This document shows, one piece after another, positions 1 to 64,000 of a DNA stretch of 64,000 nucleotides; within the stretch, counting starts at the first letter, position 1; each line of letters begins with the position of its first letter. This stretch comes from Acidimicrobiales bacterium. Its GTDB lineage: Bacteria > Actinomycetota > Acidimicrobiia > Acidimicrobiales > Bog-793. The position numbers were made by a program, and so were the translations under genes. The notes beneath the pieces are model-generated. The model was not told the origin of the DNA, made no database searches, and worked only from the letters and a program-made list of their open reading frames with translations. The stretch lies in assembly GCA_049510975.1 (NCBI GenBank), contig JBEKYM010000003.1, positions 103,011 through 167,010 of the forward strand. Direction: 5' to 3'.

Positions 1-591
1 GCCACGGCCGCCGCCCTCTGGGGATCGCCCAGCCTCGAAGGGCGCCACATCGCCGTGAACGGCGTCGGGAAGGTCGGAGGCGCACTGGCGCTGCTGTGCG
101 CCGAGCGAGGGGCACGGCTCTCGGTGGCCGACGTCTCCAGCGGTGCGCTCGGCGCCCTCGGCGCTCAGCTGGACGTCGAGGTCGTCCCGCCCGATGCCAT
201 CCACGCCGTCGAATGTGACCTCTACGCGCCGTGTGCGCTCGGCAGTGCCCTCAACGATCGGACCGTGCCGGAGCTGTCGTGCCAGGCGGTTTGCGGTGCC
301 GCCAACAACCAGTTGGACACTCCGGACACCGAGGCGGCCCTGCAGGCACGCGGCATCACCTACGTGCCGGACTACGTCGCCAACGCCGGCGGCATCATCA
401 ACATCGCCTACGAGGCCGGCGGCTACGACGCCGAGGCGGCTCGATCCCACGTCGCCCGCATCTACGACACGGTTGCTCGGCTCTTCGAGGAGGCGAGCCG
501 CACGGGCGAGCGCCTCAGCGTGCTCGCCGACGGCATGGCCGAAGCGCGCCTGGCGGCGGCCGGCGCCTCCCCCGCCGCGGCACAGCCCTGA
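1..591 (+). CDS. Glu/Leu/Phe/Val-type (leucine-like) dehydrogenase, C-terminal NAD-binding half; 5' end lies outside the window
   Basis: Frame 1 is open from base 1. GVGKVGG dinucleotide-binding motif, GAANNQL and YVPDYVANAGGII motifs typical of ELFV dehydrogenases. Confidence 0.8.
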   Translation, partial: ATAAALWGSPSLEGRHIAVNGVGKVGGALALLCAERGARLSVADVSSGALGALGAQLDVEVVPPDAIHAVECDLYAPCALGSALNDRTVPELSCQAVCGAANNQLDTPDTEAALQARGITYVPDYVANAGGIINIAYEAGGYDAEAARSHVARIYDTVARLFEEASRTGERLSVLADGMAEARLAAAGASPAAAQP

Positions 592-607
592 GAAACCCCC
601 TCGGGCC

Positions 608-1180
608 TTAGCGAGCAGCCTTCTGCCGAGCGCCCGAGCGCGACCGAGGGAGGGCCTCGTGGCCGTCGCGGGCCGTCGCGGGCTCGGCGACGGCCTCCTC
701 GCCGGGCTCCTCATCGGCCCACCCCGCAACGGCCCAGCCGGTGTCGTTCCACCCGGTGATCACGAGCATGAAGAGGGCGAACTGCAAGATGTGGACGCTC
801 GTGCACCAGATGCAGATGTGCTTGACGGCGAGCAGCTCCACGCCGACGAGGTACAGCACCATGACCATGCCGAGGCATGCGGCCGCCAGGCGGAGGCGGG
901 CGACGAGCAGCGACTCCGAGCGCCACATCGCCGGCACGTTGATCACCACCATGAAGAGGAAGAAGACGGCTCCGTAGAGCGCCACCGGGAGGCCGAGGAT
1001 GGTCGACCAGCCGCTCGTGAGCACAGCCTGACAGTCGATCGTGCCACCCGAGCCGCCGCCGAACGGGCAGACGTTCACGCCCTTGGATCCGGCCGAGTAG
1101 TGGCTGTAGGTGAGGTACACGGCCACGGCCAGTCCGAGGACCGACACGATGAGGGCCGCCCACGGCCGCCAGCGGGTCAT
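608..1180 (-). CDS. Vitamin K epoxide reductase (VKOR) family membrane protein
   Basis: Four hydrophobic helices. Loop cysteines (VNVCPFGGGSGGTIDC) and a CIWC redox motif in the last helix. The ATG overlaps the upstream stop (ATGA). Confidence 0.85.
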   Translation of the reverse strand: MTRWRPWAALIVSVLGLAVAVYLTYSHYSAGSKGVNVCPFGGGSGGTIDCQAVLTSGWSTILGLPVALYGAVFFLFMVVINVPAMWRSESLLVARLRLAAACLGMVMVLYLVGVELLAVKHICIWCTSVHILQFALFMLVITGWNDTGWAVAGWADEEPGEEAVAEPATARDGHEALPRSRSGARQKAAR

Positions 1181-2385
1181 GACTTCGGGAGCAGCTTCAG
1201 CGCCTGCTGGACGGCCGGGAGGCTGCAGACCGAGGCAGGCTGATCACCGGTCATCTTGCAGATGGCCGCCGTGTAGATGTTGGCTGCCCCGAGGATCGCC
1301 TGACCCACCGTCGTGAGCGGCGTCGACTGGATGTTGTCGATGATGTCCTGCCAGCTCAGCGGGTGCCAACCGAAGACCGTCTGACTGTTCCCCAAGGTGA
1401 TCAGGTTGGGGTTGTAGAGACTGCCGGACGAGACGTACTTGCCGGCCCAGTCGAGGAAGGGAATCCCCTGGGTGGTCTGGAAGTACGGCGCGCTGTCGTA
1501 GGTCTGGAACAGCTTGGCTTGTGCCGGGGTGGCGCCGGGTTTGATGGGCGTGTAGTTGTCGTTCGGGCAGGCGTTGCTGACCAAGGCGACGGCGCAGACG
1601 TTGGAGACGAGCTCGACGGGGTCGAACACGAGGTAGGGGCTCGTGTACGTCGCCTTGGCGAAGCTCCAGGTCCGCGTGTTCGCGAAGCTGTCCTCGGGTG
1701 ACGACCCGATGATCCCGAGGCCCTTGAACGTCCCGAAACGGCTCAGGGCGATGATGAGCGGCCAGCGAGAGGCGGCACAGTAGGGGCAGTACTCCGCCCC
1801 CATGTAGAGCAGCTCGGGCTTCTTCTTGCCCCCGACCGTTGCCGTCAGCGGCGGTTGCTTCGGAGTAGCGACGAAGACGGAGGGGCTTTCCTGCCCGTTG
1901 CCGGTGCCGCCGGCGTTGAGCTGGGCGTTCGACACCGTCGTGACGGCGGTGACGTAGGACGCCGGAGCCGTCTTGAAGGTGATCGGGCTGCCGACCTTGC
2001 CGGTCGTAGTCGAACCGCCGAGCGTGGAGATGAGGATGATGACGACGATGGCGAGGACGACGAACGCCCCGCCGAAGATGCCCGCCGTCTTTCCCGTGCT
2101 GCGTTGCTGCTGCCGCCGGCGGCGGGGGTCGATCTTGGCGCCGGGGCGGTTGCTCCGGGGCGGCGGGCGTTTCGAGCTCGACTTCGGCTGGCTGAGACGG
2201 TCGCGAGCGCGCTCGTCGGCAGACAGCCGATCCGAGCCGCCACCGTTGCCGGCCGCGCCGCCCGCCGAGGCGGGCTTGGCGGCTGCGGGAGCACCAGATC
2301 TACGGGTCGCCGCCGAACGGTTCCCGGTGCCCGGTGGTCGCCGATTGCCGCTCCCGGGCTTGCGGGGTGTCCCGCTGTTCGCCAT
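1177..2385 (-). CDS. DUF929-type membrane-anchored thioredoxin-fold protein (CPYC motif)
   Basis: Basic, disordered N-terminus, one TM helix (IFGGAFVVLAIVVIILI), then LLYMGAEYCPYCAASRWPLIIALSRFG. 4-nt overlap with the VKOR gene. Confidence 0.75.
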   Translation of the reverse strand: MANSGTPRKPGSGNRRPPGTGNRSAATRRSGAPAAAKPASAGGAAGNGGGSDRLSADERARDRLSQPKSSSKRPPPRSNRPGAKIDPRRRRQQQRSTGKTAGIFGGAFVVLAIVVIILISTLGGSTTTGKVGSPITFKTAPASYVTAVTTVSNAQLNAGGTGNGQESPSVFVATPKQPPLTATVGGKKKPELLYMGAEYCPYCAASRWPLIIALSRFGTFKGLGIIGSSPEDSFANTRTWSFAKATYTSPYLVFDPVELVSNVCAVALVSNACPNDNYTPIKPGATPAQAKLFQTYDSAPYFQTTQGIPFLDWAGKYVSSGSLYNPNLITLGNSQTVFGWHPLSWQDIIDNIQSTPLTTVGQAILGAANIYTAAICKMTGDQPASVCSLPAVQQALKLLPKS

Positions 2386-2533
2386 CTTGGTGAGATTCCC
2401 TTCGTGGTGTTGCGAGTGGCCTCGTCAACCACAGGCCTTCGCCGGTTTGCGCCCCATGAGGTTACATGCCTGCCAACACCGAGGGCACGTCGCCCTCGCA
2501 GCGGGAACAGAGGGACGTACCTAGGCTCGCCCT

Positions 2534-2947
2534 GTGCATCGTCGCCGCCTGAGCTGGGCTCTTGGTCTCGCCCTGGCCGCCGGGCTCGCCGACTGCGTCG
2601 TTGATGCCCCAGCCCGGCCGTTCACGCTCCGAGCAGATGTCACGACGGCGATCGGAATCGCCGGAGTCCTCCTCCTCGGGGCCTTCGGGCGACGGCGGGC
2701 ACGGGAGGCATCGCCGCCGGCCGGGGAGCCCGTGGCGCCTGCAGTGGGCCGTCCGGCCAAGCTCGCCTGGGCGACGCTGGCCGTAGCGGTGGCGAGCCTC
2801 GAGCTCGGCAACTTCGTCGCCTCTCCCCGCAGCCAGCATCCGACGATCAGCTCGCTGCTCGCCGTCGCCGAAGGTCACGAAGTCTGGCGGGCCCTGCTGT
2901 TCGCCGCCTGGCTCGCAGTCGGCTGGTGGCTGTGGGGACCCTCGTGA
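2534..2947 (+). CDS. Hypothetical small membrane protein (tandem paralogue 1)
   Basis: High third-position G+C and hydrophobic segments. C-terminal motif RALLFAAWLAVGWWLW is shared with the next ORF. Confidence 0.45.
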   Translation: MHRRRLSWALGLALAAGLADCVVDAPARPFTLRADVTTAIGIAGVLLLGAFGRRRAREASPPAGEPVAPAVGRPAKLAWATLAVAVASLELGNFVASPRSQHPTISSLLAVAEGHEVWRALLFAAWLAVGWWLWGPS

Positions 2948-3138
2948 GGACGCTCTCCCTCGCGCTGTGGAGCGGCCTTGCAGCCGTCGCCCTCGTGCTC
3001 GAGGTGGCCGGTCGGCGCAGGCTCGCCGGCCTCGCTCCCCTCGGCCAAGTGCTCCGGGCCTTGTGCACGGCCATGCCGGCTCGCATCGGCCTGTTTCTCG
3101 TGTGGGCGTGGCTCGGCTGGCACCTCTTCGCCCGCTGA
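2944..3138 (+). CDS. Hypothetical small membrane protein (tandem paralogue 2)
   Basis: GTG at 2944 overlaps the previous stop (GTGA). C-terminal RIGLFLVWAWLGWHLF resembles the previous protein. Confidence 0.4.
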   Translation: MRTLSLALWSGLAAVALVLEVAGRRRLAGLAPLGQVLRALCTAMPARIGLFLVWAWLGWHLFAR

Positions 3139-3260
3139 CTGCCCCGGTGCCGTCGCCGGCGCCGCCAGACGAATCTCGATCGCCCGGCGCCACCCACCAG
3201 GCGAGTGTCGCGCACGCCCGCCGGGCTTGCGTCACCTGCGCTGCCCTCGAGATGCCACAA

Positions 3261-3298
3261 GGCGCCGGGCCCTCCCCCGAGGGGGAAGATCCGGCGCC
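3261..3298. terminator. GC-rich nested hairpin between convergent genes (possible bidirectional terminator)
   Basis: GGCGCCGG ... CCGGCGCC arms enclose TCCCCC-GA-GGGGGA. It lies between the 3138 stop (+) and the 3389 stop (-). Confidence 0.35.
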
Positions 3299-3388
3299 TT
3301 GCTCCGGTGCCGCCAGAGCTCGAGTCGATTCGGTGGCTGATCAGGGTTTACTTCACGCTGCGACCGCCACGAGCGTGTCGGGCGACCG

Positions 3389-5149
3389 TCAGGCGACGGG
3401 CCGGGCCCCCAGCGAGATGGTGGCCGAGTGCTTGCCGCCGGAGGGGTCGATCCAGGTCACGTTGACGGACTGGCCGGGCTTGTCCTTGGACAGGATCGCT
3501 CCGAGAGCCACGGGAGTGGCAACCGAAGTGCCGTTGACGGCCGTGATCACGTCGCCTTCCTTCAGGCCGGACTGCACCGCCGGCGTGCCCTGGAGGATGC
3601 CGGCGACATAGGCGCCCTTGTTCGTTCCCGGCGTCGGGTACTGCGCACCGAAGATGCCGGTGGGAGCGGCCTCCGCCTGAGCGATCGTGATGACTTCGAC
3701 TCCGATGAAGCCCTTGTTGTTGATCAGGACCGACGAACTGCCCTTGCCCTGCTGGATCTGCTGGGCGATGGCGATGGCCTCGTTGATCGGGATGGCGAAT
3801 CCGATGTTCGTGGCCGCCTGTGTGGAGCTGCCCGATGCGGCGGCGGTGTCCATGCCGATGACCTGTCCGGCGGCGTTCACGAGCGGGCCGCCCGAGTTGC
3901 CCGGGTTGATGGGGGCGTCGGTCTGGATGAGGCCGCTCAGGTTCTCGGTCACTCCGGTTCCTTCATCACTGGCCGAGATGGAGCGCCCGAGGGCCGACAC
4001 GATGCCCTGGGTCACGGTCGGCGGGCCCTTCAGGTCAAGCGCGTTGCCGATGGCGACGACCGGATCGCCCACTTGCAGGCTCGAGGAGTTGCCGATCGAC
4101 ACCGTCGAGAGGCCGGAGGCGCCCACGAGCTGCACGAGAGCGACGTCCTGCTTGGTGTCGGTTCCGAGCACCCGAACCTTGTAGGTGGTGCCCTTGCCGT
4201 CGATCTGGGCCGTGATCGAGGTCCCGTCCGCGATGACGTGGTTGTTCGTGAGGACTTCGCCGTTCGACGTGAGGATCATGCCGGTGCCGGCCGCCTCCTC
4301 GCCGCTCGACTGGTCGATCGAGGTGATGTCCACGACGGCAGGGTCGACTTTGGCAGCGATGGCGGACACGTTGATCTTGGCGTTGGTGCCGGGGCTGCCC
4401 GAATTCGACGGCGACGGGATCGGTTGGGTCGCCGTCGTCTGTGCTTTGGTCGGGCTGGACGACTTGCCGATGAGCACGCCACCGCCGATCGCGGCCAGCA
4501 GGACGACGGCTCCGAGGGCACCGACGAGCACGCGGCGCGATCGACCGGGCTTTGCGCCAGGCGTCGCCGGCTCCGGATCACCCTCAGGGAACCCGTATCC
4601 ACCTGGCGCCGGCGGCGGACCGCCCGTCGGTGGCAGACCGCCGCTTCCACCCATCGGCCAGCCCTCTCCGATCTCGATCGGCTGGCCCGGGGGGGCGCCC
4701 GCCGCGCCCGCTGCTGCGGAGCCCGGCACCCAGCTCGGGGTAGCGGGCTGAGGCCAGCCACCCCAGGCAGGCGACTGCGCCTGATAAGGCCCGAGGGGGT
4801 CGGCCGGCGCCGGCATCGGCGCCCAGGCCGCAGTGCCGGCAGGTGGCGTCGGGCGGGGTACGTCCGGGTCCGGGTGCGGGGCCGCTGCGCCGGGCGTCCA
4901 TGCCGGCATCCCGCTCGGTGGGGTCGAGGGCTGGGCGGCATACGGGTTCCAGCCGCTCTGGGACGGGTCGGGGATCCATCCGCCGACCACCGGCGACGCC
5001 GACTCGGGCATCGCCGGCTCGGCCGCGGCCGCTTCCGGCTCGGCCGCGGCTGCTTCCGGCGCTGTCGTGGCCTCGGAACCGACCTCAGCCTCGGGAGAAC
5101 CGGTCTCGGCCTCCGGAGTTGACTCGGGGCTCTCGAATTCGTTGTCCAT
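3389..5149 (-). CDS. HtrA/DegP-like S1C serine protease with Pro/Ala-rich N-terminus, TM anchor and C-terminal PDZ domain
   Basis: Catalytic-triad contexts TNNHV, DVALV and GNSGGPL. PDZ-like GAYVAGILQGTPAVQSGLKEGDVITAVNG. Confidence 0.9.
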   Translation of the reverse strand: MDNEFESPESTPEAETGSPEAEVGSEATTAPEAAAAEPEAAAAEPAMPESASPVVGGWIPDPSQSGWNPYAAQPSTPPSGMPAWTPGAAAPHPDPDVPRPTPPAGTAAWAPMPAPADPLGPYQAQSPAWGGWPQPATPSWVPGSAAAGAAGAPPGQPIEIGEGWPMGGSGGLPPTGGPPPAPGGYGFPEGDPEPATPGAKPGRSRRVLVGALGAVVLLAAIGGGVLIGKSSSPTKAQTTATQPIPSPSNSGSPGTNAKINVSAIAAKVDPAVVDITSIDQSSGEEAAGTGMILTSNGEVLTNNHVIADGTSITAQIDGKGTTYKVRVLGTDTKQDVALVQLVGASGLSTVSIGNSSSLQVGDPVVAIGNALDLKGPPTVTQGIVSALGRSISASDEGTGVTENLSGLIQTDAPINPGNSGGPLVNAAGQVIGMDTAAASGSSTQAATNIGFAIPINEAIAIAQQIQQGKGSSSVLINNKGFIGVEVITIAQAEAAPTGIFGAQYPTPGTNKGAYVAGILQGTPAVQSGLKEGDVITAVNGTSVATPVALGAILSKDKPGQSVNVTWIDPSGGKHSATISLGARPVA

Positions 5150-54818: not shown

Positions 54819-55529
54819 GTGAGCGGGGCGGCCGGCGAGGTCGAGCGCGTGCTGGAAGCTGCTCGGGCGGCGACCGGGTTCATGCCCGACGAGGAGGGAC
54901 TGGCCCTCGGGCGGGTCGCCGGACTGGTGGCCTCGCTGGCACCGGGTGCCGGCGGCGACGTGATCGTCGAAGTCGGCGCCTACTGCGGCCGCTCGACGCT
55001 GTACCTCGCCCACGGCGTGCTGGCGGCGCTCGCTGAGGAGGTCGGCGGCGGCGCAGCCGGCGGGGGGCGACCCGTCGTGTTCAGCGTCGACCACCATCAC
55101 GGCTCCGAGGAGAACCAGGCCGGCTGGGAGCACCACGATCTCTCCCTCGTCGATCCGCAGACGGGCCGGCTCGACACGCTCCCGACCTGGCGCCGGACGA
55201 TCGAAGGGGCCGGCGTGGAAGGCGGGGTCGTCGGTCTCGTCGGCGACTCCCCGACCATCGCCGCACGGTGGGGGGCGATGGCAGGTCTCGTCTTCATCGA
55301 CGGCGGCCACGGCGCCGAGCCGGCGTGGGCGGACTATTACGGCTGGGCGCCGGTCGTGGCCGTCGGTGGATGGCTCGCGATCCACGACGTCTTCCCGGAT
55401 CCGGCCGATGGCGGGCGACCACCGTACGAGCTCTACCTGCGAGCCCTCGAGTCGGGCGCCTTCGTCGAGGAGGCTGCGCTCGGTCGGGGCAGCCTGCGGG
55501 TCCTGCGACGGGTGACCGCCGGCGTCTGA
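54819..55529 (+). CDS. Class I SAM-dependent (TylF/CmcI-like) methyltransferase
   Basis: VEVGAYCGRSTLYLA ... FIDGGHG ... GGWLAIHDV. Confidence 0.7.
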   Translation: MSGAAGEVERVLEAARAATGFMPDEEGLALGRVAGLVASLAPGAGGDVIVEVGAYCGRSTLYLAHGVLAALAEEVGGGAAGGGRPVVFSVDHHHGSEENQAGWEHHDLSLVDPQTGRLDTLPTWRRTIEGAGVEGGVVGLVGDSPTIAARWGAMAGLVFIDGGHGAEPAWADYYGWAPVVAVGGWLAIHDVFPDPADGGRPPYELYLRALESGAFVEEAALGRGSLRVLRRVTAGV

Positions 55530-55611
55530 GGGCATAGAGCCCGGCGGCGCCGGCGGGGTGGCGTGGAGCGAGGCGGCGGGTTTCTTTGGTCAGGCGTGGC
55601 GCCGGCCGGAT

Positions 55612-55673
55612 CGAACCGTGTGCACAGGGTGACCGCCCGACGCCCTGTCCGGTTACTTTGTGCACACGGTTCG
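55612..55673. terminator. 15-bp perfect inverted repeat with 32-nt spacer between convergent genes
   Basis: CGAACCGTGTGCACA (55612-26) and TGTGCACACGGTTCG (55659-73). A GGGTTTCTTTGG tract lies upstream. Confidence 0.35.
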
Positions 55674-55729
55674 CGCTGCAGCACCGCCGCAGCACCGCCG
55701 GACGCCGGCGGCCGGCGGCCCCGAGCCCG

Positions 55730-56800
55730 TCAGGCGCGCTCTTCCACCTCGGACTCGGCATCGAGGTCGAGCACGGTGCCCGCCGGCAGCGAGCGCCCGA
55801 GGAAGAGGCCCGACGCCGGCCCCTGTGCTTCGAGGGCGTCGACGGCGAGGATCATGGCGGCGGCGGTGTAGCTGCTGCGCTCCTCGTGGGGGAAGCTCGA
55901 ACGCTGCGGGTAGACGAGGCCGGTCATGTAGGAGCCGTCCGGGCATCGCTGGTCCTGCACCCACTCGAGGAGGGAGGCGGCCTGCTGGCGGCGGTCGAGG
56001 CTGAGCAGGGCCATGGCGCACTCGGCCGTCTCGGCCGCGGTCACCCAGGAGCGGTCGGACACGCAGCGGACGCCTCGGCCCTCGATGACGAGCTCGGACC
56101 ACCGCTCGTCGATGCGCTCGGCACCGCGGGCCGGCTCGAGCGCACCGGACAGGACCGGGTAGTACCAGTCCATCGCAAAACGCTCCTTCGGCTCGAACCG
56201 GTCCGGCCGGTAGGCGACGGCGTGTCGCAGCCTCCCGGCGGCCAGCTCCCAGTCCGGGCGGTCGAGGCCGATGCGCTCGGCGCAGGCGACCGCGCAGCGC
56301 AGGCTGAAGTAGGCGGACGACGACCCGGTGAGCAGCGCATAGTCACCAGGCGTGCCGTCGGCCTCCACGGACCAGGTCAACTCGCCGCCGGGCTGCTGCC
56401 AGGAGAGGACGAAGTCGATCGACGCCTCGACGACGGGCCAGAACGACTCGATGACCCCCGTGTCGCCCGTCACGAGGTAGTGATGCCAGATCCCGGTGGC
56501 GAGGTAGGCGCAGACGTTGGTGTCGCGTTTTGCGTCCTCGATGGAGCCGTCAGGCCAGTAGTAGTTGTGCCAGGCGCCGTCGGGGAGCTGCGTGGCGCGG
56601 AGCCACTCGTAGGCGCGCACGGCGGCGTCGAGCCGGCCGGCGGTGGCAAGGGCCATGGCGGCTTCGACGTGGTTCCACGGGTCGGCGTGGCCGCCCTCGA
56701 ACCACTGCACCATCCCGTTCGGCAGCTGGCACGCCTCGATGGACGCCGCCGTGGCGCTGAGGTCGTCGGCGCTCAACAGGTAAGCCGGGATTCGGGTCAC
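55730..56800 (-). CDS. Prenyltransferase / terpene-cyclase-like alpha-alpha toroid repeat protein
   Basis: Recurrent Q-x-x-[DNG]-G-x-[WY]-type motifs (QLPNGMVQW, QLPDGAWHNYYW, QQPGGELTW, RCPDGSYMTG). The ATG overlaps the upstream stop. Confidence 0.6.
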   Translation of the reverse strand: MTRIPAYLLSADDLSATAASIEACQLPNGMVQWFEGGHADPWNHVEAAMALATAGRLDAAVRAYEWLRATQLPDGAWHNYYWPDGSIEDAKRDTNVCAYLATGIWHHYLVTGDTGVIESFWPVVEASIDFVLSWQQPGGELTWSVEADGTPGDYALLTGSSSAYFSLRCAVACAERIGLDRPDWELAAGRLRHAVAYRPDRFEPKERFAMDWYYPVLSGALEPARGAERIDERWSELVIEGRGVRCVSDRSWVTAAETAECAMALLSLDRRQQAASLLEWVQDQRCPDGSYMTGLVYPQRSSFPHEERSSYTAAAMILAVDALEAQGPASGLFLGRSLPAGTVLDLDAESEVEERA

Positions 56801-57510
56801 GATGCATGCTCCACATACACGACGAAACTCTTACCGATCAAGGGGTTCAGTACCTGCTCCGAGACGCGGGTGAGGGCGGGGCGTTTCATGATGTCCCAGA
56901 CGAGCAGTTGGTGGTAGGCCCGCACGGCCCGGTGCTGATCGTTGCTCGTGCCCACGAGGCACTTGAGCCACCAGTAGGGACTATGGAGGGCGTGGGCGTG
57001 ATGTGTGGCGAGGATGCGCAGGCCTGACGACTGCAGCCGAGCGAGGAGCTGGCTCCGTCGGTAGATGCGGATGTGGCCACCCGGAACGCTGTGGTACTCC
57101 TCCGACAGGGCCCAGTTGATCATCTCGGGCCCATAGCGAGGGACCGTCACGGCCATGCGGCCGGTCGGCTTCAGCACGCGAGCGAGCTCGGAGATGGCGA
57201 CGTGGTCGTTCGGCAGGTGCTCGAGCACCTCGGCGGCGATGATCCGGTCGAAGCTGTCGTCGGGGAACGGCAGCTGGAACGCCGTCCCCTGCACCTCCAT
57301 GCTGCGAGCACCTTCGCCTGCTTCGCCGGCCTCCGCCATCGCCTGCACGAGCCCGGTCACGCCTTTCAGCTCGACGAAGTCGGCGTCGAAGGCGACGACG
57401 CTCGCCCCCCGCCGGAACGACTCGAAGGCGTGACGGCCGCCGCCACATCCGAGGTCGAGCACCCGATCACCGGGCTGCAGGCCGAGACGTTCGAAGTCGA
57501 CCGTCAGCAC
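56797..57510 (-). CDS. Class I SAM-dependent methyltransferase
   Basis: VLDLGCGGGRHA motif I and AAEVLEHL. GTG at 57510 overlaps the GT4 3' end by 7 nt. Confidence 0.8.
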   Translation of the reverse strand: MLTVDFERLGLQPGDRVLDLGCGGGRHAFESFRRGASVVAFDADFVELKGVTGLVQAMAEAGEAGEGARSMEVQGTAFQLPFPDDSFDRIIAAEVLEHLPNDHVAISELARVLKPTGRMAVTVPRYGPEMINWALSEEYHSVPGGHIRIYRRSQLLARLQSSGLRILATHHAHALHSPYWWLKCLVGTSNDQHRAVRAYHQLLVWDIMKRPALTRVSEQVLNPLIGKSFVVYVEHAS

Positions 57511-58889
57511 GGCGACCCGGTCCCGGCGGCGTCGATCGCCGGCGCGACGCCGGCCGGAGCGACGCCGGCCGGAGCGACGGCCAGACCGCCGGCGTGGGCA
57601 GCAGGAGCAGAGGCCCGGTCGCGGGCGGCTCGCGCCCGCTCCTCGAGCAGGACCCGATACTGATCGGCGGTGAGGCGTGCGGTGACAGGCCAGGTGAAGA
57701 GCTCGAGCGTGCGTTTCCGGCCGGCAGCCCCGATCCGAGCTCGCAGCTCGGCGTCGCCGAGGGCCCGCAGCAGACCGGCGGCGAGCGCTCCCGGGTCGTT
57801 CGGCGCCACGAGCAGAGCCGTGACACCGTCGGTGCCGGCAACTTCCGGCAGTGCTCCGCCAGTAGTCGCGACGAGCATGACGCCGCTCGCCATCGCTTCG
57901 ATCGCCGGCAACGAGAAACCCTCGTAGAGCGACGGCACGACCGCCACCTCCGCCGAGCCGTACAGCTCCGACAGCTCGTCGTCGGAGATGCCCGAGCGGA
58001 AGTTGACAGCACCTTCGAGGCCGAGGCGATCGAGCACCCCCGGGATGAGGCTCCCGTCCCGCAGCCGCCCGACGACGACGAGGTGGGCGTCGGAACGCTC
58101 CGTGCGTACCTTCGCAAGGGCTTCCAGCAAGGGGATGAGGCCTTTCATGGGCACATCCGCACTGGCGGTCGTCACGAGCCTGCCCGGCACCCGGGCGATC
58201 TCGGGCCGAGGCCGGAACACCGACTCGTCGACACCGACCGGCACGACGGCCATCCGGGACGGCTCGACGCCGAGCTGCTCGGCGATGTCGTGGCACGACG
58301 ACTCCGACACGGTCACGACACGGGGGATCTGGCGGGCGACTCGGCGCTGCATCTCGATGAACCCGTACCACCGCCGCAGCGTCAGCCGCCGGCGGATCGT
58401 GGTGGCGTGCGACAGGTCCAGCTCACGATCGACCGTGATCGGATGGTGGATCGTGCCGAGCAGCGGCCAGCCGTCGCGCATGATCCCGAGCAGCCCGCTG
58501 CCGAGCGACTGGTTGTCGTGCACGATGTCGAACTGGCCGGTGCGCGCCGCCAGCAGCTTGCGTGCACGCAGCGTGAACGTGCGCGGTTCGGGGAAGCCGG
58601 CCGTGCACATGATGGCGAACTCGAGGGCGTCGATCGACGTCTTGAACTCCGAGGGGCGCGGCACCCGGAACGGGTCGGGCTCCCGGTACAGGTCGAGGCT
58701 CGGCACCTCGACGAAACCCACCCCGTCCTCCAACTCCGGGTACGGCTGCCCGGAGAACACCGTCACTTCGTGGCCGAGCTTCGTGAGCTCATTGGTCAGG
58801 TGGCGGGTGTAGACACCCTGACCGCCACAACGTGGGTTGCCCCGGTAGACGAGATACGCGACGCGAAGCCGCTCCGCATCAGCGTTCAT
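57504..58889 (-). CDS. GT4-family glycosyltransferase
   Basis: N-terminal GGQGVYTRHL ... and C-terminal PSLYEGFSLPAIEAMASG (E-x7-E region). Confidence 0.85.
   Translation of the reverse strand: MNADAERLRVAYLVYRGNPRCGGQGVYTRHLTNELTKLGHEVTVFSGQPYPELEDGVGFVEVPSLDLYREPDPFRVPRPSEFKTSIDALEFAIMCTAGFPEPRTFTLRARKLLAARTGQFDIVHDNQSLGSGLLGIMRDGWPLLGTIHHPITVDRELDLSHATTIRRRLTLRRWYGFIEMQRRVARQIPRVVTVSESSCHDIAEQLGVEPSRMAVVPVGVDESVFRPRPEIARVPGRLVTTASADVPMKGLIPLLEALAKVRTERSDAHLVVVGRLRDGSLIPGVLDRLGLEGAVNFRSGISDDELSELYGSAEVAVVPSLYEGFSLPAIEAMASGVMLVATTGGALPEVAGTDGVTALLVAPNDPGALAAGLLRALGDAELRARIGAAGRKRTLELFTWPVTARLTADQYRVLLEERARAARDRASAPAAHAGGLAVAPAGVAPAGVAPAIDAAGTGSPC
57544..57588 (-). repeat. 15-bp tandem repeat, about 2.5 copies, in frame ((APAGV)n tail of GT4)
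   Basis: GCGACGCCGGCCGGA x2, then a degenerate third copy. Confidence 0.8.
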
Positions 58890-58954
58890 GATCGCTCAAG
58901 CCTTCCCCGCTTCGGTGCTCCAGCGCAACTCAACATCCAACCTGGCCTTTTCGC

Positions 58955-60346
58955 TCACTTGATCCCGATCGCCGGCAGGATCGTGACGACCACGAGGAGA
59001 ACGGCCATGAAGCTCACGACGACCGTGACCACGGCCGAGACGACCTTCAGAATGGGCCCGTTCGCCCACTTGCCGAGAACGCTCTTGCGGTTGGCGAGCA
59101 CGACGATGAACGTCAGCGTGATGGGTGTGACCAGCCCCTGCACGACCTGGGTGCCGATGAGCAGGCTGATCAGGTTGATCGGCGTCAGCGTCACGATGAC
59201 ACCGATGATGATCTGAGCGGTGAACAGCCCGAGGAACAGCGGCGCCTGACGGAAGCTGCGCGAGACGGAGCGCTCGACGCCGATCGCCTCGGCGAGGGCG
59301 TACGAGGTCGACAGGGGGACGACGGCTGCCGCCAGGGCCGAAGCCCCGAGCAAGCCGAGGCCGAAGAGGATGACGGCGGCCGGGCCGGCCACGGGGCGAA
59401 GGGCATGGGCCGCTTCCTTCGCCGAGGTGAGCACGCCGGAGCCACCGATGGCAGCCCCAGTGGCGATGATGATCGACCACGAGATGAACGTGGCAAAGCC
59501 GGCGCCGGCGACGGCATCGATGCGCTCGAGCGGGTACTCCTCCGGACCGATGCCGCGGTCGACCACCGCCGAAGCGTTGTAGAGCTGCATGTAGGGCGAG
59601 ATCGTCGTGCCGATGAGGGCCACAGCGAGGAGGACGAACGCCTTGTTGGACACGAGGTGCGGGATGACGACCGAGCTCGCCACCGTCGACCACTTCGGAT
59701 GTGAGAGGGCGGCCGCCACCGGGTAGGCGAAGAAGGCCACCGTGAGGAGCAGGAAGACCCGCTCGGCGTACCGGTAGCTGCCGAGGAGCACGAGGAGCCA
59801 GATGGCGACGGCTGAGATCGGGACCGTGATGTAGCGGGAGACGCCGAACAATTCGAAGGCGGTGGCGATGCCGGCGAACTCCGAGACGACGATGCCGACG
59901 TTGGCGATGACGAGCGCTCCGAGGGCGAGGGAGGTGAGGCGGATCGAGAACTCCTCTCGGATGAGAGAGGCGAGTCCTTTGCCCGAGATGGCGCCGAGGC
60001 GGGCCGACATCTCCTGCACGAGCGCCAGCCCGATGCCGATGAGGAGCATGAGAAACAACGTCCGGTAGCGGTACTGCGATCCGGCCGAGGAGTAGGTGAC
60101 GATGCCGCCGGCGTCGTTTCCCGCGGCGGCGGCGATGAGGCCCGGGCCGGCGATGGTGGCGAGGAAGAGGATGCGCCGGCGGACCGGACGTCGACGGGGA
60201 GCCCGGGGCGTTCGCAGCAGCCGCGGCTCCGGCTCCCCGGATCCTCGCGGCCGGCCCACCTCGACGGCACCGGCCTCTCCTCGCGACACCGCCCGGCTCG
60301 GGCGACGCCGACTCGGCTCCTTGGTGCCCTCGTCCGAGGGCGCCAT
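58955..60346 (-). CDS. SLC11/Nramp-related transporter with a non-canonical metal site (NRMT-like)
   Basis: GPGLIAAAAGNDAGGIVTYSSAGSQYRY (canonical DPGN reads DAGG here). GTTISPYMQLYNAS (canonical A-x-x-M-P-H reads T-x-x-S-P-Y here). Strong RBS GAAGGAGGAAGG. Confidence 0.85.
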   Translation of the reverse strand: MAPSDEGTKEPSRRRPSRAVSRGEAGAVEVGRPRGSGEPEPRLLRTPRAPRRRPVRRRILFLATIAGPGLIAAAAGNDAGGIVTYSSAGSQYRYRTLFLMLLIGIGLALVQEMSARLGAISGKGLASLIREEFSIRLTSLALGALVIANVGIVVSEFAGIATAFELFGVSRYITVPISAVAIWLLVLLGSYRYAERVFLLLTVAFFAYPVAAALSHPKWSTVASSVVIPHLVSNKAFVLLAVALIGTTISPYMQLYNASAVVDRGIGPEEYPLERIDAVAGAGFATFISWSIIIATGAAIGGSGVLTSAKEAAHALRPVAGPAAVILFGLGLLGASALAAAVVPLSTSYALAEAIGVERSVSRSFRQAPLFLGLFTAQIIIGVIVTLTPINLISLLIGTQVVQGLVTPITLTFIVVLANRKSVLGKWANGPILKVVSAVVTVVVSFMAVLLVVVTILPAIGIK

Positions 60347-60362
60347 AAGCCTTCCTCCTTCG

Positions 60363-61700
60363 TCACTGCAGGAACCGTGGGAAGTGCAGGCGTCCCCGCT
60401 CAGGCAGCAGGGCGTCGACGACGTCGTCGGCGAGGATGCGCCCGATGGGGCGACCCTCCTCGACGACGAGCACCGACGACCGGCGGGCTTCGGTCAGCTG
60501 GGCCGCCACCGCGCGGATCGACTCGTCGGGGCCGACGGTGAGCGGCGTCTCCTCACCGACGAGATCGCCGACCGTCGTGTTCGGGTCGGCGATGAGCAGG
60601 TCGAAGAGCGTGAGGTCGTCGACGAGCAGCCCGTCGGCATCGACGACGGCGACACCGTCGAGCTCGCCGCGGTGATCGGCCAGCTCGCGCAGGCGGCCGC
60701 GCAGCGCCTCGACCGTGTCGTCGAAGTGGGCGACGGCGAGCGACGTCGTCATGATGCCGCCGGCGGTGTCCTCCTCGTAGGCGAGCATGCCCGAGAGCTC
60801 GGCCGCCCGTTCGCTGTTCATGTGGCCGAGGAGCTCGTCGCGCTCCTCGTCGGCCAGGTCGCGCAACGCTTCCACGGCTTCGTCGGTCTCCATGGAGGAG
60901 ACGAGTGAAGCGGCCTGATCCGGGTCGACCCCGCGCAGCAGGGACTCCAGCTCCTCGGGGTCCATCTCCTCGAGGGCGTCGGCCGCCTCTCTCGGGTCGA
61001 GCACCTTCAGCAGCTCCTGCTGCTCCTCGCGATCGAGATCCTCCAGCAAGTCGGCGAGCTCGCCCGGACGGAGGCGGTGGAGGCCCTCGTGCGTGGTGCG
61101 CAGGCGCACCGTCAGGCCCGGGGCGCCGAAGGGTTGGATGGCCGCCCAGTCGATCACCCGTCCCGGTGTCGGTCGGCTCCGCTGGCTGAAGGGGCCGAGG
61201 CGGCGCAGCAGCGTTTGGGTGCTCACGTCGACGCCGACGAGGCGGATGCGGTTCTGCACAGGAGCCAGGTAGAGATCGGCTGCCCGGATGACCTGCACGC
61301 CGTCGACGTCCACGAGCTGGTGGTCGAGCACGTCGCGGGCGAGCAGGAGCTCGCCGTCACGCCGCTCGTAGTCGCGCAAATCCACCCGCGCCGACCGCAG
61401 CACGACCTCGGTGTGACTGAGGCTGGCGACGAGGCTGGCGTCGAGGAACACCTTGCGCCGGCCGACCCGCACGACGAAACCAGTGATCGGCGGGTACGCC
61501 TGGTCGCCCGCGAACCGGGCGATGGCGTCCACGACGCGGCCGATCTCCTCACCGCCTTGATGGCGGACGGGACGGTTGATGAGGCCGGCGAGGCTGACGA
61601 TGGAGTCCCGCACGGCGCGAGTCGCCGTCAGGCGGTTGTGGCGCTTGTCGAGGCGGGTACGGAGCGTTTGCGGAGCGGGCACAGGAGGGCGACGAGCCAT
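60363..61700 (-). CDS. Soluble PRC-barrel x2 + MgtE_N + CBS-pair protein (MgtE cytosolic module without a pore)
   Basis: PRC-like GEEIGRVVDAI ... GFVVRVG. MgtE_N helices LADLLEDLD ... EALRDL. GGIMTT, then two CBS motifs. Ends at HFPRFLQ with no TM helices. Confidence 0.85.
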   Translation of the reverse strand: MARRPPVPAPQTLRTRLDKRHNRLTATRAVRDSIVSLAGLINRPVRHQGGEEIGRVVDAIARFAGDQAYPPITGFVVRVGRRKVFLDASLVASLSHTEVVLRSARVDLRDYERRDGELLLARDVLDHQLVDVDGVQVIRAADLYLAPVQNRIRLVGVDVSTQTLLRRLGPFSQRSRPTPGRVIDWAAIQPFGAPGLTVRLRTTHEGLHRLRPGELADLLEDLDREEQQELLKVLDPREAADALEEMDPEELESLLRGVDPDQAASLVSSMETDEAVEALRDLADEERDELLGHMNSERAAELSGMLAYEEDTAGGIMTTSLAVAHFDDTVEALRGRLRELADHRGELDGVAVVDADGLLVDDLTLFDLLIADPNTTVGDLVGEETPLTVGPDESIRAVAAQLTEARRSSVLVVEEGRPIGRILADDVVDALLPERGRLHFPRFLQ

Positions 61701-62084
61701 GGGACCTCCTTCGAATGACAGGCGCCCTGGGGGCGCAAGCGAGCAACGGCGGCGTCATGCGGACGGCGCGCAACAGCGCGCCTCCACGGTGCAGTCGTGA
61801 CCCGGTCCTCGGCAGCCGGCCGAGCCGGCCGGTCCTGCGGCTCAGCGCTCCCGCGTGCGACTCAACGGGGTGGACGGAGGCAGGGCACCTGAGGACGGGG
61901 CGCGCCGGTACTCGGGGGTTGGTCGGTTGACATCGACCCCACCTCCTTTCGTGCTCGGCCAACTCGTCACGGGTGCTCCGCCGACTGCTCCACCAGGCGA
62001 AACCCGCAGCATCCTAGCCGCGCGCCACCCCCTTTCCGCCCGGCCAACTGCCACGTGCTGCGGGCCGGCGGTAGCCTCTGGGCC

Positions 62085-63326
62085 ATGGATCTGACTTACC
62101 CGCCCGAAGCCGAGGCGTTTCGCGTCGAAGTCCGCAGCTGGCTCGAGGAGAACCTGCCGCAAGGTTGGGGGCAACCGGGGTTCTCGATGACGCCCGATCA
62201 ACGTGCCTCGTTCAACAACGAGTGGACGAAGAAGCTGGCCGACGGCGGCTGGATCTGCGCCTCCTGGCCGAAGGAGTACGGCGGCCGCGGGCTCTCGATC
62301 ATGGAGAGCGTCGTGCTCAACGAGGAGTTCGCCCGGGTGAACGCCCCCATGCGGGCGGACTTCTTCGGGGACACGCTCGTCGGCCCGACGATCCTCAAGT
62401 GGGGCACCGAGGAGCAGAAGCAGTACTTCCTGCCGAAGATCCTCTCCGGTGAGATCTCGTGGTGCCAGGGCTTCTCCGAGCCAGACTCGGGGAGCGACCT
62501 CGCCTCCTTGAAGACGAGGGCCGAGCTCGACGGGGACGAGTGGGTCATCAACGGTCAAAAGGTGTGGACCACCCAGGCGCAGTACGCCGACTACGTCTTC
62601 CTCATGGCGCGCACCGACCCGGAGCTCCCCAAGCACAAGGGCATCTCCTACCTGCTCGTCCCGATGCGGCAGGAGGGCATCGAGGTGCGCCCGATCGCCC
62701 AGATCGACGGGTCGGCCGAGTTCAACGAGGTCTTCTTCTCGAACGCCCGCTGCCCGAAGGACAACGTCGTCGGCGGTGTCAACAACGGTTGGGCCGTGGC
62801 CATGGACACGCTCGGCTTCGAGCGGGGCACGTCGGCGACGACCGGCTACCGCCGCTTCCAGAAGGAGCTCGACGCCATCATCGACGTCGCCAAGGCCAAC
62901 GGCAAGATCAACGACCCGCTCGTGCGCCAGCGTCTGGCGCTGGCGTGGTCGAAGGTCAAGATCATGCAGATCAACGGGTTGCGAAGCCTGACCTCGGCGC
63001 TGACGGGCGACCACTCGACGATCGCCCTCGGGGCCACCAACAAGATGTACTGGTCCGAGTACCACCGCGACACGATGGAACTGGCGATGGACATCTTGGG
63101 CATGGAAGGCCAGGTCCTTCCCGTGCACGCCGGCGATGACGACGACGTCGAGTTCATGCCTGGCATCGGTGCGCGCCACCGGCGGCCTGGGTATGGGGTG
63201 AGCCCGCTGCAGGCGAGTTTCTTCTTCTCTCGTTCCGAGACGATCTGGGGAGGAACCGCACAGATCCAGCGAAACATCGTCGGCGAGCGCGTGCTCGGCC
63301 TGCCGAAGGAACCCAAGGCCGGCTGA
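62085..63326 (+). CDS. Acyl-CoA dehydrogenase family protein
   Basis: ATG at 62085. WPKEYGGRG ... CQGFSEPDSGSDLASL ... GGTAQIQRNIVGERVLGLP. Confidence 0.9.
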   Translation: MDLTYPPEAEAFRVEVRSWLEENLPQGWGQPGFSMTPDQRASFNNEWTKKLADGGWICASWPKEYGGRGLSIMESVVLNEEFARVNAPMRADFFGDTLVGPTILKWGTEEQKQYFLPKILSGEISWCQGFSEPDSGSDLASLKTRAELDGDEWVINGQKVWTTQAQYADYVFLMARTDPELPKHKGISYLLVPMRQEGIEVRPIAQIDGSAEFNEVFFSNARCPKDNVVGGVNNGWAVAMDTLGFERGTSATTGYRRFQKELDAIIDVAKANGKINDPLVRQRLALAWSKVKIMQINGLRSLTSALTGDHSTIALGATNKMYWSEYHRDTMELAMDILGMEGQVLPVHAGDDDDVEFMPGIGARHRRPGYGVSPLQASFFFSRSETIWGGTAQIQRNIVGERVLGLPKEPKAG

Positions 63327-63445
63327 GCCCGGCGGCCGGCGCCGGCTACCTCTTCGGACTCGGATCAGGGCGGCGGCTAAGGACCGTCGTCGCAAAGGTG
63401 CCGGCGGTACGCTGCGAGCCTTGCTACCTCGCGGAGGCACCTGAC

Positions 63446-64000
63446 ATGCACGGCCCCACTCGGTCCTCGGGATCAACTCGCCGGCGCCGGTTGAGCGTGC
63501 CAGTGGTGCTGGCACTCGGGCTCGCCGCCGTCATGGCTGCGCCGGCGGCCGCGGCCGCTTCGCCTTCGACCGGTGCAGGCTCGGCCACCGTGACCTCGCC
63601 CTGGACGACGCAGGCGGCGCTCGGCACGACCTTCGTCCTGTCGAGCGTGGTGGCATGCGCCTCGTCCACCGACTGCTACGCCCTCGGGCGGACTGATGGG
63701 GAGGAGGCGGCCGGGTTTCTTGTGTCGAGCGACGCCGGGCAGGTCTGGTCGAGCGCGGCGATCGCCTCTGGTTCCACTGACTTCGACGTCATGGCTTGCC
63801 CGGCGATCGCCACCTGTTACATCGCCGGGCCGGGTGGCGGCGGCACGATCATGGACAAGACGACGAACTCCGGCGCCAGCTGGGCCGCCGTCAAGGTGCC
63901 GGCGTCGGTCAGCATCGACGCCCTCACCTGCCGCACGGCCACGTGGTGTGTCGCCGGCGGCTTCTCCACGGCGAGCAACGAGTCGATCGTGACCACCAAT
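63446..64000 (+). CDS. Secreted Cys-pair/BNR-like repeat protein, third paralogue; 3' end lies outside the window
   Basis: My own translation: MHGPTRSSGSTRRRRLSVPVVLALGLAAVMAAPAAAAA ... VACASSTDCYALG ... SSDAGQVW ... MACPAIATCYIAG ... TTNSGASW ... LTCRTATWCVAGG. The frame stays open to the window edge, so it is not on the ORF track. Confidence 0.7.
   Translation, partial: MHGPTRSSGSTRRRRLSVPVVLALGLAAVMAAPAAAAASPSTGAGSATVTSPWTTQAALGTTFVLSSVVACASSTDCYALGRTDGEEAAGFLVSSDAGQVWSSAAIASGSTDFDVMACPAIATCYIAGPGGGGTIMDKTTNSGASWAAVKVPASVSIDALTCRTATWCVAGGFSTASNESIVTTN

Follow-up and report, generated by a model that had tools for sequence, protein, structure and literature searches.

A pore-less MgtE-like protein encoded directly upstream of an NRMT-type transporter in an Acidimicrobiales-like actinobacterium

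A two-gene operon in a 64-kb stretch of DNA from an Acidimicrobiales bacterium (contig JBEKYM010000003.1, positions 103,011 to 167,010; hereafter the window) couples an MgtE-like cytosolic protein to an Nramp-related transporter of the NRMT type. The upstream gene (60363..61700, minus strand) encodes a 445-residue soluble protein, referred to as the sensor or partner. Its open reading frame (ORF), Pfam matches and AlphaFold model reveal a PRC barrel, a PRC-like segment, an MgtE_N domain and a CBS pair in sequential order, and no pore domain. The downstream gene (58955..60346, minus strand) encodes a 463-residue transporter of the Nramp/SLC11 family, assigned to the NRMT type by its ORF, Pfam and alignment to EleNRMT. 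The upstream product has every cytosolic part of a PRC-bearing MgtE channel but no pore, and is taken to be a soluble regulatory protein. It may act as a Mg2+-dependent brake that gates the transporter, a reading to which we give an even chance.

Both ORFs occupy the minus-strand positions given in a preliminary description of the window, and their junction is as described there. The stop codon of the sensor (TGA, 60365..60363) and the start codon of the transporter (ATG, 60346..60344) are separated by 16 nt, and this gap contains the transporter Shine-Dalgarno sequence GAAGGAGGAAGG (60350..60361, minus strand). The two genes are predicted to form a translationally coupled, bicistronic operon of the NrmT type described before, in an Acidimicrobiales-like actinobacterium. 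Both proteins have their nearest homologues in Acidimicrobiales metagenome bins, and the guanine plus cytosine content is ~70% across the locus. The rest of the 64-kb window contains no second copy of the sensor or of the NRMT gene.

Shin et al. (2014, PLoS Genet; PMC4072509) reported that most NrmT genes follow a gene with homology to MgtE's cytoplasmic N-terminal domain. The pairing was thus already published in 2014, and the claim of the preliminary description to know of no such report does not hold. Shin et al. also placed many NrmT operons under M-box riboswitches, and speculated that the MgtE-like partner serves cytoplasmic feedback regulation or acts as a chaperone (PMC4072509). The possible recruitment of a gating module in trans is a hypothesis already published in that work, and it is unproven. 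Their operons share with the window an Nramp-related transporter devoid of Mn/Fe ligands behind a gene for the MgtE cytoplasmic domain. Some of them are under an M-box, whereas the window copy has none. The window partner has 445 residues and an N-terminal tandem PRC module. The later structural and evolutionary NRMT papers that were found do not discuss the partner. Relative to the searchable literature, four features were found in no paper: the PRC module on MgtE channels and reduced partners, the probable membrane anchor of Eggerthellaceae partners, the invariant N/CBS ligands without an ATP site, and a Pro-Pro leader.

Architecture of the sensor

The MgtE-derived part of the sensor begins with the helical MgtE_N domain (residues 210–311; 60768..61073, minus strand; Pfam E = 7e-23). 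The CBS pair follows (residues 313–433; 60402..60764, minus strand) and is assigned from Pfam (residues 385–432, E = 1e-10), the model and the alignment. Residues 201–434 align with the cytosolic domains of MgtE structures (E = 1e-22). The predicted local distance difference test (pLDDT) score of the AlphaFold model exceeds 90 over most of residues 250–430. The model can be well superimposed on the cytosolic domains of Enterococcus faecalis MgtE (2OUX), with a TM-score of 0.83 and a root mean square deviation of 1.8 Å over 230 columns, and a fold search with the full-length model returned MgtE and CBS matches only. Since the 445-residue sensor contains no hydrophobic segment and no Pfam match to the MgtE pore domain PF01769, it is not an MgtE channel. 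These results bear out the proposal of an MgtE_N domain and a CBS pair without a pore.

The sensor was compared with Thermus thermophilus MgtE (2YVY/2YVX) using alignments at ~28% identity, and residue conservation was assessed in 58 aligned family members. D241, D273 and E277 of the N domain correspond to E59, D91 and D95 of MgtE, and D426 and D429 of the CBS pair correspond to D247 and D250. The counterparts of E59, D91, D247 and D250 are invariant Asp. The counterpart of D95 is Asp or Glu in 57 of the 58 sequences and Gly in one. The acidic ligands of Mg4, Mg6, Mg7 and half of Mg5 are retained in this comparison, and R406/R407 take the places of D226/F227. The residues that contact ATP in MgtE, namely Y170, R187, N203 and F227, are not kept in the family; Y170 is replaced by Gly or Ala, R187 by Phe and F227 by Arg. 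ATP sensing by the CBS pair is judged unlikely on account of these substitutions. The sensor lacks the transmembrane pore, the plug-helix sites Mg2 and Mg3 and the ATP-site residues of MgtE. It is the product of a gene of its own, and the protein it is paired with is an unrelated carrier of the LeuT fold.

A basic and aromatic C-terminal tail, ERGRLHFPRFLQ (residues 434–445; 60366..60401, minus strand), occupies the position of the MgtE plug helix in the alignment and is nearly invariant. R437 is present in all 58 sequences, and H439, F440, P441 and R442 are each present in at least 55. Sensors of the window family typically end in LPERGRLHFPRxLQ. Both the N domain (net charge −25) and the CBS domain (−15) are strongly acidic.

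The N-terminal part of the sensor consists of a tandem PRC module. PRC barrel 1 (residues 34–120; 61341..61601, minus strand) is defined by the AlphaFold2 model (pLDDT 73–96) and by Foldseek matches to PRC barrels. A partial second PRC-like segment with a basic linker (residues 121–200; 61101..61340, minus strand) is defined by BLASTP matches to the proteins P0330 and P0331 and by Pfam PRC matches in orthologues. The Pfam PRC profile (PF05239) matches the window sensor with 15.6 bits (E = 0.016), below the gathering cut-off of 21.2 bits. Orthologous sequences exceed the cut-off, including the Eggerthella partner (42.8 bits) and P0331, P0330 and P0317 (38.5, 29.9 and 28.3 bits, in unassigned order). 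The above-threshold matches in the latter three together span both segments, and the second segment is matched in P0330 and P0317. By BLASTP, the PRC region of the sensor matches P0330 and P0331, which are PRC-bearing MgtE channels, with E values of 5e-24 and 3e-18.

A separate model of residues 25–205 has a predicted TM-score of 0.76. All PDB matches listed by Foldseek for this N-terminal model are PRC-barrel proteins. The top match is the tandem-PRC pair CdpB1/CdpB2 (E = 9e-5), and the others include PRC1/PRC2, the reaction-centre H subunit, MTH1859, CdvA and RimM. Barrel 1 (residues ~34–120) is modeled with confidence. The second segment (~121–160) forms a half barrel of lower confidence, and the full-length model is poorly confident at residues 128–205. 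Of the two PRC-barrel-like segments originally described, the first is therefore a confident barrel and the second only a partial one.

The same tandem PRC module is present at the N terminus of complete MgtE channels of 620–674 residues (P0330–P0337; L084, 1544..3535). These channels display the same order of tandem PRC module, N domain and CBS pair as the window sensor, but they keep the pore domain PF01769. One PRC-bearing MgtE channel gene was examined and has no Nramp neighbour. Because the module also occurs on complete channels without such a neighbour, it was not invented for the pairing with Nramp. Most simply, the partner would be derived from an MgtE channel with a PRC module that lost its pore. 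A literature search for PRC barrels together with MgtE found no paper, which is weak evidence of absence given its incomplete coverage.

Some partners are reduced. Those of Mycobacterium (L053, L061), Solirubrobacterales (L072, L078) and the protein P0425 keep the PRC module and contain no CBS pair. The Mycobacterium proteins, from one isolate genome and one metagenome-assembled genome (MAG), consist of the PRC module and part of the N domain. The Solirubrobacterales proteins consist of the PRC module only; the coding sequence of one example, 292 residues long, extends into the start of its Nramp gene. Only the PRC module is common to all the reduced partners. In Eggerthellaceae (L085–L164, for example L085 at 2473..3912), the partners have a conserved hydrophobic helix at the C terminus (...FLALYTLVLLQ...), which is probably a single membrane anchor.

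The transporter and the conservation of the gene pair

The transporter matches the Pfam Nramp profile PF01566 over positions 2–356 of 357 (E = 1.6e-77). The NCBIfam MntH models match it only below their cut-offs. In a PDB search, EleNRMT (7QIA) is by far the best match, with 43% identity (E = 6e-100), and the canonical Mn2+ transporters follow at E = 1e-20 or worse.

The metal site is built from two motifs. That of transmembrane segment 1, N77-D78-A79-G80-G81 (60104..60118, minus strand), aligns with N54-D55-A56-G57-G58 of EleNRMT. That of transmembrane segment 6, G246-T247-T248-I249-S250-P251-Y252 (59591..59611, minus strand), aligns with G223-T224-T225-I226-A227-P228-W229. In the first motif, which reads D-x-G-G rather than D-P-G-N, the Asp is kept (D78, equivalent to D55) and Gly replaces the canonical Asn (G81, equivalent to G58). 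In the second, T247 (equivalent to T224) replaces Ala, and the canonical Met position is occupied by S250, as it is by Ala227 in EleNRMT. The two histidines of helix 6b are lost in both proteins and replaced by Y252 and N258 in the window transporter and by Trp and Asn in EleNRMT (7QIA/7QIC). E156 in helix 3 and Q400 in helix 10 are equivalent to E133 and Q379, and both are invariant in the family alignment. The metal-site Asp, Gly, Thr and Gln are thus common to the two transporters.

In EleNRMT, D55, T224 and Q379 matter for transport, and T224 specifically for that of Mg2+ (PMC8806188). The metal site is widened by G58 and a small residue at the Met position, and the replaced helix-6b histidines accompany proton-independent transport (PMC8806188). 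EleNRMT also carries Mn2+ (PMC8806188). The strength of the EleNRMT match and the shared metal-site residues assign the window transporter to the NRMT clade, an assignment with which every sequence-level feature agrees. The alignment confirms the earlier view of an Nramp-fold transporter without Mn/Fe ligands, in that D78, G81, T247, E156 and Q400 match D55, G58, T224, E133 and Q379, and Gly and Ser instead of the canonical Asn and Met occupy the metal site. As in EleNRMT, the transporter is predicted to be a carrier of the Nramp fold that lacks the proton pathway and accepts hydrated Mg2+ as well as Mn2+ in an enlarged site with neither Met nor Asn.

An Arg-rich N-terminal tail of 60 residues with a net charge of +10 distinguishes the window transporter from EleNRMT and is absent from many homologues of ~400 residues. 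Electrostatic complementarity between this basic tail and the acidic N and CBS domains of the partner is possible.

A scan of one genome per GTDB species yielded at least 554 relatives of the transporter, and the best 80 loci (L001–L080) were analysed, with partners called by hidden Markov models built from the sensor family. The partner adjoins the transporter in 79 of these 80 actinobacterial loci, comprising 73 full partners, 4 reduced partners and 2 that are cut by a contig end and still show the partner C-terminus. All 79 lie immediately upstream on the same strand; three of the full partners are split and two falsely fused by frameshifts. The estimated spacing from stop to start has a median of −4 nt, and most values lie within a few nt of overlap. 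The order is inverted in Ktedonobacterales, with the transporter first, and the pair is kept. This neighbourhood survey upholds the earlier view of the pair as a conserved unit.

A second survey, in which metagenomes were scanned with the EleNRMT sequence, returned gut contigs that are 70–98% identical. Of 80 gut contigs, 65 have a full partner upstream of EleNRMT, and in ten more it is cut by a contig end; the remainder lack upstream sequence or escaped the position filter. Wherever a gut contig extends far enough upstream, a full partner directly precedes EleNRMT. The EleNRMT gene, like the window transporter gene, is thus preceded by a partner that contains the PRC, PRC-like, MgtE_N and CBS-pair elements in the same order. 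The window and Eggerthella partners are colinear and share 30% identity over 415 residues (E = 2.5e-47). The C-terminal membrane helix of the Eggerthella partner is missing from the window partner.

Several loci (L010, L014, L031, L051 and L057; ~1..3200, minus strand) contain a second, divergently transcribed paralogous pair. A sensor paralogue with PRC, MgtE_N and CBS domains and the tail ...LPEDWRRRE... precedes a more distant Nramp-like gene with the motifs GDNDAGG and GTTVAPW. Some actinomycetes thus have a head-to-head duplication of the whole two-gene module. In several Eggerthellaceae contigs (L085 2224..2297, L113, L129), a tRNA gene of the same orientation closely precedes the pair, ~175 nt before the sensor ORF in L085. 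A tRNA gene also lies just upstream of the Ktedonobacterales pair (L081 2083..2156).

Possible gating of the transporter and its alternatives

NRMTs transport without a partner, both in vivo (PMC4072509) and as purified EleNRMT in liposomes (PMC8806188), suggesting that the partner is regulatory rather than essential. A brake would be needed because NRMTs appear to be uncoupled Mg2+ carriers. In the proposed mechanism, the partner docks at the cytoplasmic face of the transporter, with the PRC module and the conserved basic C-terminal tail as the likeliest contact elements. High cytosolic Mg2+ would bridge the acidic N and CBS domains, as in MgtE, and the compact state would inhibit the carrier. 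When Mg2+ falls, the two domains would part and uptake would go on. Whether the partner is such a brake is evenly poised in our estimate.

Several observations point to the brake. We infer Mg2+ sensing because the Mg2+ ligands of the N/CBS interface are kept and the ATP-site residues are not. A link to Mg2+ physiology is suggested by an M-box riboswitch that precedes the sensor gene in 10 of the 80 loci, in Streptomycetaceae orthologues, in line with Shin et al. The hydrophobic helix at the end of Eggerthellaceae partners would place the partner near the membrane. The PRC barrels had been suggested as a docking element. Their retention as the sole part of reduced partners agrees with this role, whereas their presence on MgtE channels without an Nramp neighbour does not, and support for the suggestion is mixed.

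Separately encoded cytoplasmic regulators that plug or gate transporters are known from GlnK-AmtB and KtrA-KtrB. In these systems a co-transcribed soluble ligand sensor sits on the cytoplasmic face of the transporter, as is proposed for the window pair. Their folds and ligands are unrelated to those of the window pair, and the interaction is proven there and inferred here.

A number of observations weigh against the brake. Contact between partner and transporter is putative. In the only published functional test of a partner, co-expression of the Acidobacterium capsulatum pair in Bacillus subtilis, no effect was seen and Mg2+ rescue was not improved (PMC4072509). An unimproved rescue at low Mg2+ is also what a brake would give, so the test fits the model as well. 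The counterpart of D226 is an invariant Arg in the sensor family, which removes half of Mg5, and no acidic residue takes the place of E258 or D259 at the plug-helix sites Mg2 and Mg3. The mapping of residues onto MgtE depends on alignments at only ~28% identity. The reduced partners remain directly upstream of Nramp even though they can form no N/CBS Mg2+ clamp. Locus L054 (1..1147) is the sole surveyed locus with an NRMT and no recognisable partner; its upstream ORF encodes 283 residues and has no Pfam match.

Apparent fusions of sensor and transporter (L055, L074, P0241–P0245) likewise fail as evidence of contact and were rejected as frameshift artefacts. In L055 (4923..5102) and L074 (1609..1803), the canonical tail GRFHFPRLL(S/Q) can still be read in the +1 frame and is followed by a stop codon, which in L055 overlaps the transporter ATG. 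The 'Pro-rich linker' of the apparent fusions is this canonical tail read out of frame. The assemblies concerned, which are long-read MAGs, contain 1-nt indels and other frameshifts (P0243, P0245; split sensors in L001, L010 and L018). Where database entries from these sources combine MgtE_N, CBS and Nramp domains in 700–900 residues, they should not be read as fusions.

Four alternatives to the brake were considered. In the first, which we consider unlikely, the partner is a scaffold, assembly or localisation factor, whose PRC module binds the transporter or another structure and whose MgtE-derived domains are dispensable. The PRC module alone is kept in Solirubrobacterales and Mycobacterium partners, its closest folds (CdpB1/B2, CdvA, RimM and the reaction-centre H subunit) are protein-binding modules, and the Eggerthellaceae partners are membrane-anchored, all in keeping with a scaffold. 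However, EleNRMT and clostridial NrmTs fold and transport without a partner (PMC4072509, PMC8806188).

A second and equally unlikely alternative is that the partner gates the transporter on another signal, such as Mn2+, another cation or a nucleotide. The A. capsulatum transporter acted as a Mn2+ importer and rescued Mn2+ but not Mg2+ uptake, Shin et al. suggested Mn2+ sensing there (PMC4072509), and Mn2+ is also a substrate of EleNRMT (PMC8806188). CBS pairs, moreover, commonly bind adenosine nucleotides. Against another signal, the ATP contacts of MgtE are replaced in the sensor at Y170, R187 and F227, the acidic Mg2+ ligands are kept, and M-box control of orthologous operons points to Mg2+.

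A third alternative, which seems slightly less likely again, is a cytosolic metal acceptor, chaperone or buffer that takes Mg2+ or Mn2+ from the inner vestibule without gating. Such a role was named by Shin et al. (PMC4072509), and it accords with the very acidic N and CBS domains and with the conservation of several metal-ligand positions. On the other hand, a chaperone is hard to justify for an ion whose free cellular concentration is millimolar, reduced partners without the acidic domains stay paired, and the homologous module in MgtE is a gate.

Finally, it is very improbable that the two genes share no more than a transcript and that their products do not interact. The co-expression test without effect (PMC4072509) would agree with this, whereas the adjacency in 79 of 80 loci, its occurrence in Acidimicrobiia, Streptomycetaceae, Mycobacteriaceae, Coriobacteriia, Saccharimonadales and Chloroflexota, its survival of gene-order inversion and the near-overlap in most of the estimated spacings speak against it.

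A candidate leader peptide and control of the operon

A short conserved element is located 161 nt upstream of the sensor ATG. It contains a candidate upstream ORF (uORF) of 23 codons plus TGA, MSTDQPPSTGAPRPQVPCLRPPR (61862..61933, minus strand), with a conserved core (E/D/Q)-P-P-S at codons 5–8. The uORF is preceded by a Shine-Dalgarno sequence, AAAGGAGGTG (61941..61950, minus strand), whose GGAGG lies 8 nt before the uORF ATG in a block conserved among 40 aligned leaders. By nhmmer and pattern searches, the same leader was located ahead of the sensor gene in 40 other loci; in L054 it immediately precedes the transporter. Its layout is fixed, with a Shine-Dalgarno sequence, a start codon, 3–4 variable codons and (E/D/Q)-P-P-S, and most leaders comprise 19–23 codons. 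The Ser codon is the rare AGT in 42 of 43 cases.

The leader pattern occurs 45 times in 1.77 Mb. Forty-two occurrences fall in the 650-nt zone before the sensor gene, a ~670-fold enrichment, and two further ones are the leaders of the window and of L054. In 1.26 Mb of Eggerthellaceae and other loci, no occurrence was found. Between closely related pairs, the uORF differs at 7–17% of sites and the flanks at 42–53%, making the uORF three to five times more conserved. The window leader folds no better than shuffled sequence (z = −0.03). In RNAalifold analysis of the 40 leaders, the only invariant pairing is between the Shine-Dalgarno sequence and CCNCC, without covariation, and no alternative RNA structures were found. 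With its own Shine-Dalgarno sequence, fixed layout, enrichment, conservation above the flanks and lack of a covarying RNA structure, the element looks like a translated leader peptide. It sits where the Streptomycetaceae orthologues carry the M-box, and leader and M-box never co-occur. A literature search for the Pro-Pro leader found no description, which is weak evidence of absence because its coverage was incomplete.

MgtL and MgtP are leader peptides with Pro codons ahead of the Salmonella Mg2+ transporter genes mgtA and mgtCBR. The window leader resembles them in being a short candidate uORF with Pro codons before a Mg2+ transporter operon. It is unrelated to them in sequence and host phylum, and differs by its fixed (E/D/Q)-P-P-S at codons 5–8, its rare AGT Ser codon and the lack of alternative RNA structures. 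The leader may be an attenuator like MgtL in Salmonella, linking ribosome pausing to the expression of the genes downstream. Expression is probably subject to a second layer of control, exerted by the M-box in Streptomycetaceae orthologues and by the Pro-Pro leader here.

A broader proposal, advanced tentatively and with well under an even chance, is that Mg2+ controls the operon at two levels, by a former MgtE gating module in trans and by a Pro-Pro leader that replaces the M-box and acts through ribosome pausing. The tandem PRC module and the basic tail, or the membrane anchor in Eggerthellaceae, would hold the partner on the transporter. The leader (M-x3-E/D/Q-P-P-S, with the rare AGT codon) would be the sensor at the level of expression in Acidimicrobiia and some other actinobacteria.

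There are no consensus promoters or terminators of note around the locus. No M-box or other riboswitch is matched by Rfam at E ≤ 1 in 55000..64000, apart from a chance match to a small nucleolar RNA family. This match, to the archaeal C/D-box small RNA sR41 at 59201..59251 (plus strand), is antisense within the transporter gene and weak (23.5 bits against a gathering threshold of 54; E = 0.035). The flanking genes are unrelated to the pair, with a divergent acyl-CoA dehydrogenase gene upstream and genes for a GT4 glycosyltransferase and methyltransferases downstream. Beyond the latter lies an ORF of 356 residues (55730..56800, minus strand) without a Pfam match.

Among the Mg2+ importers known from bacteria, NRMTs form the fourth class. 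Because they are apparently uncoupled, overload of the cell could result if one were unregulated. EleNRMT was studied structurally in the absence of the partner, even though the gene for the partner directly precedes that of EleNRMT. The conserved residues, the reduced forms, the membrane-anchored variant, the PRC module, the tail and the Pro-Pro leader provide handles on the role of the partner. If the brake is true, the Mg2+-sensing domain of a channel would regulate a carrier of another fold in trans, and a gating device would clearly have been reused as a module.

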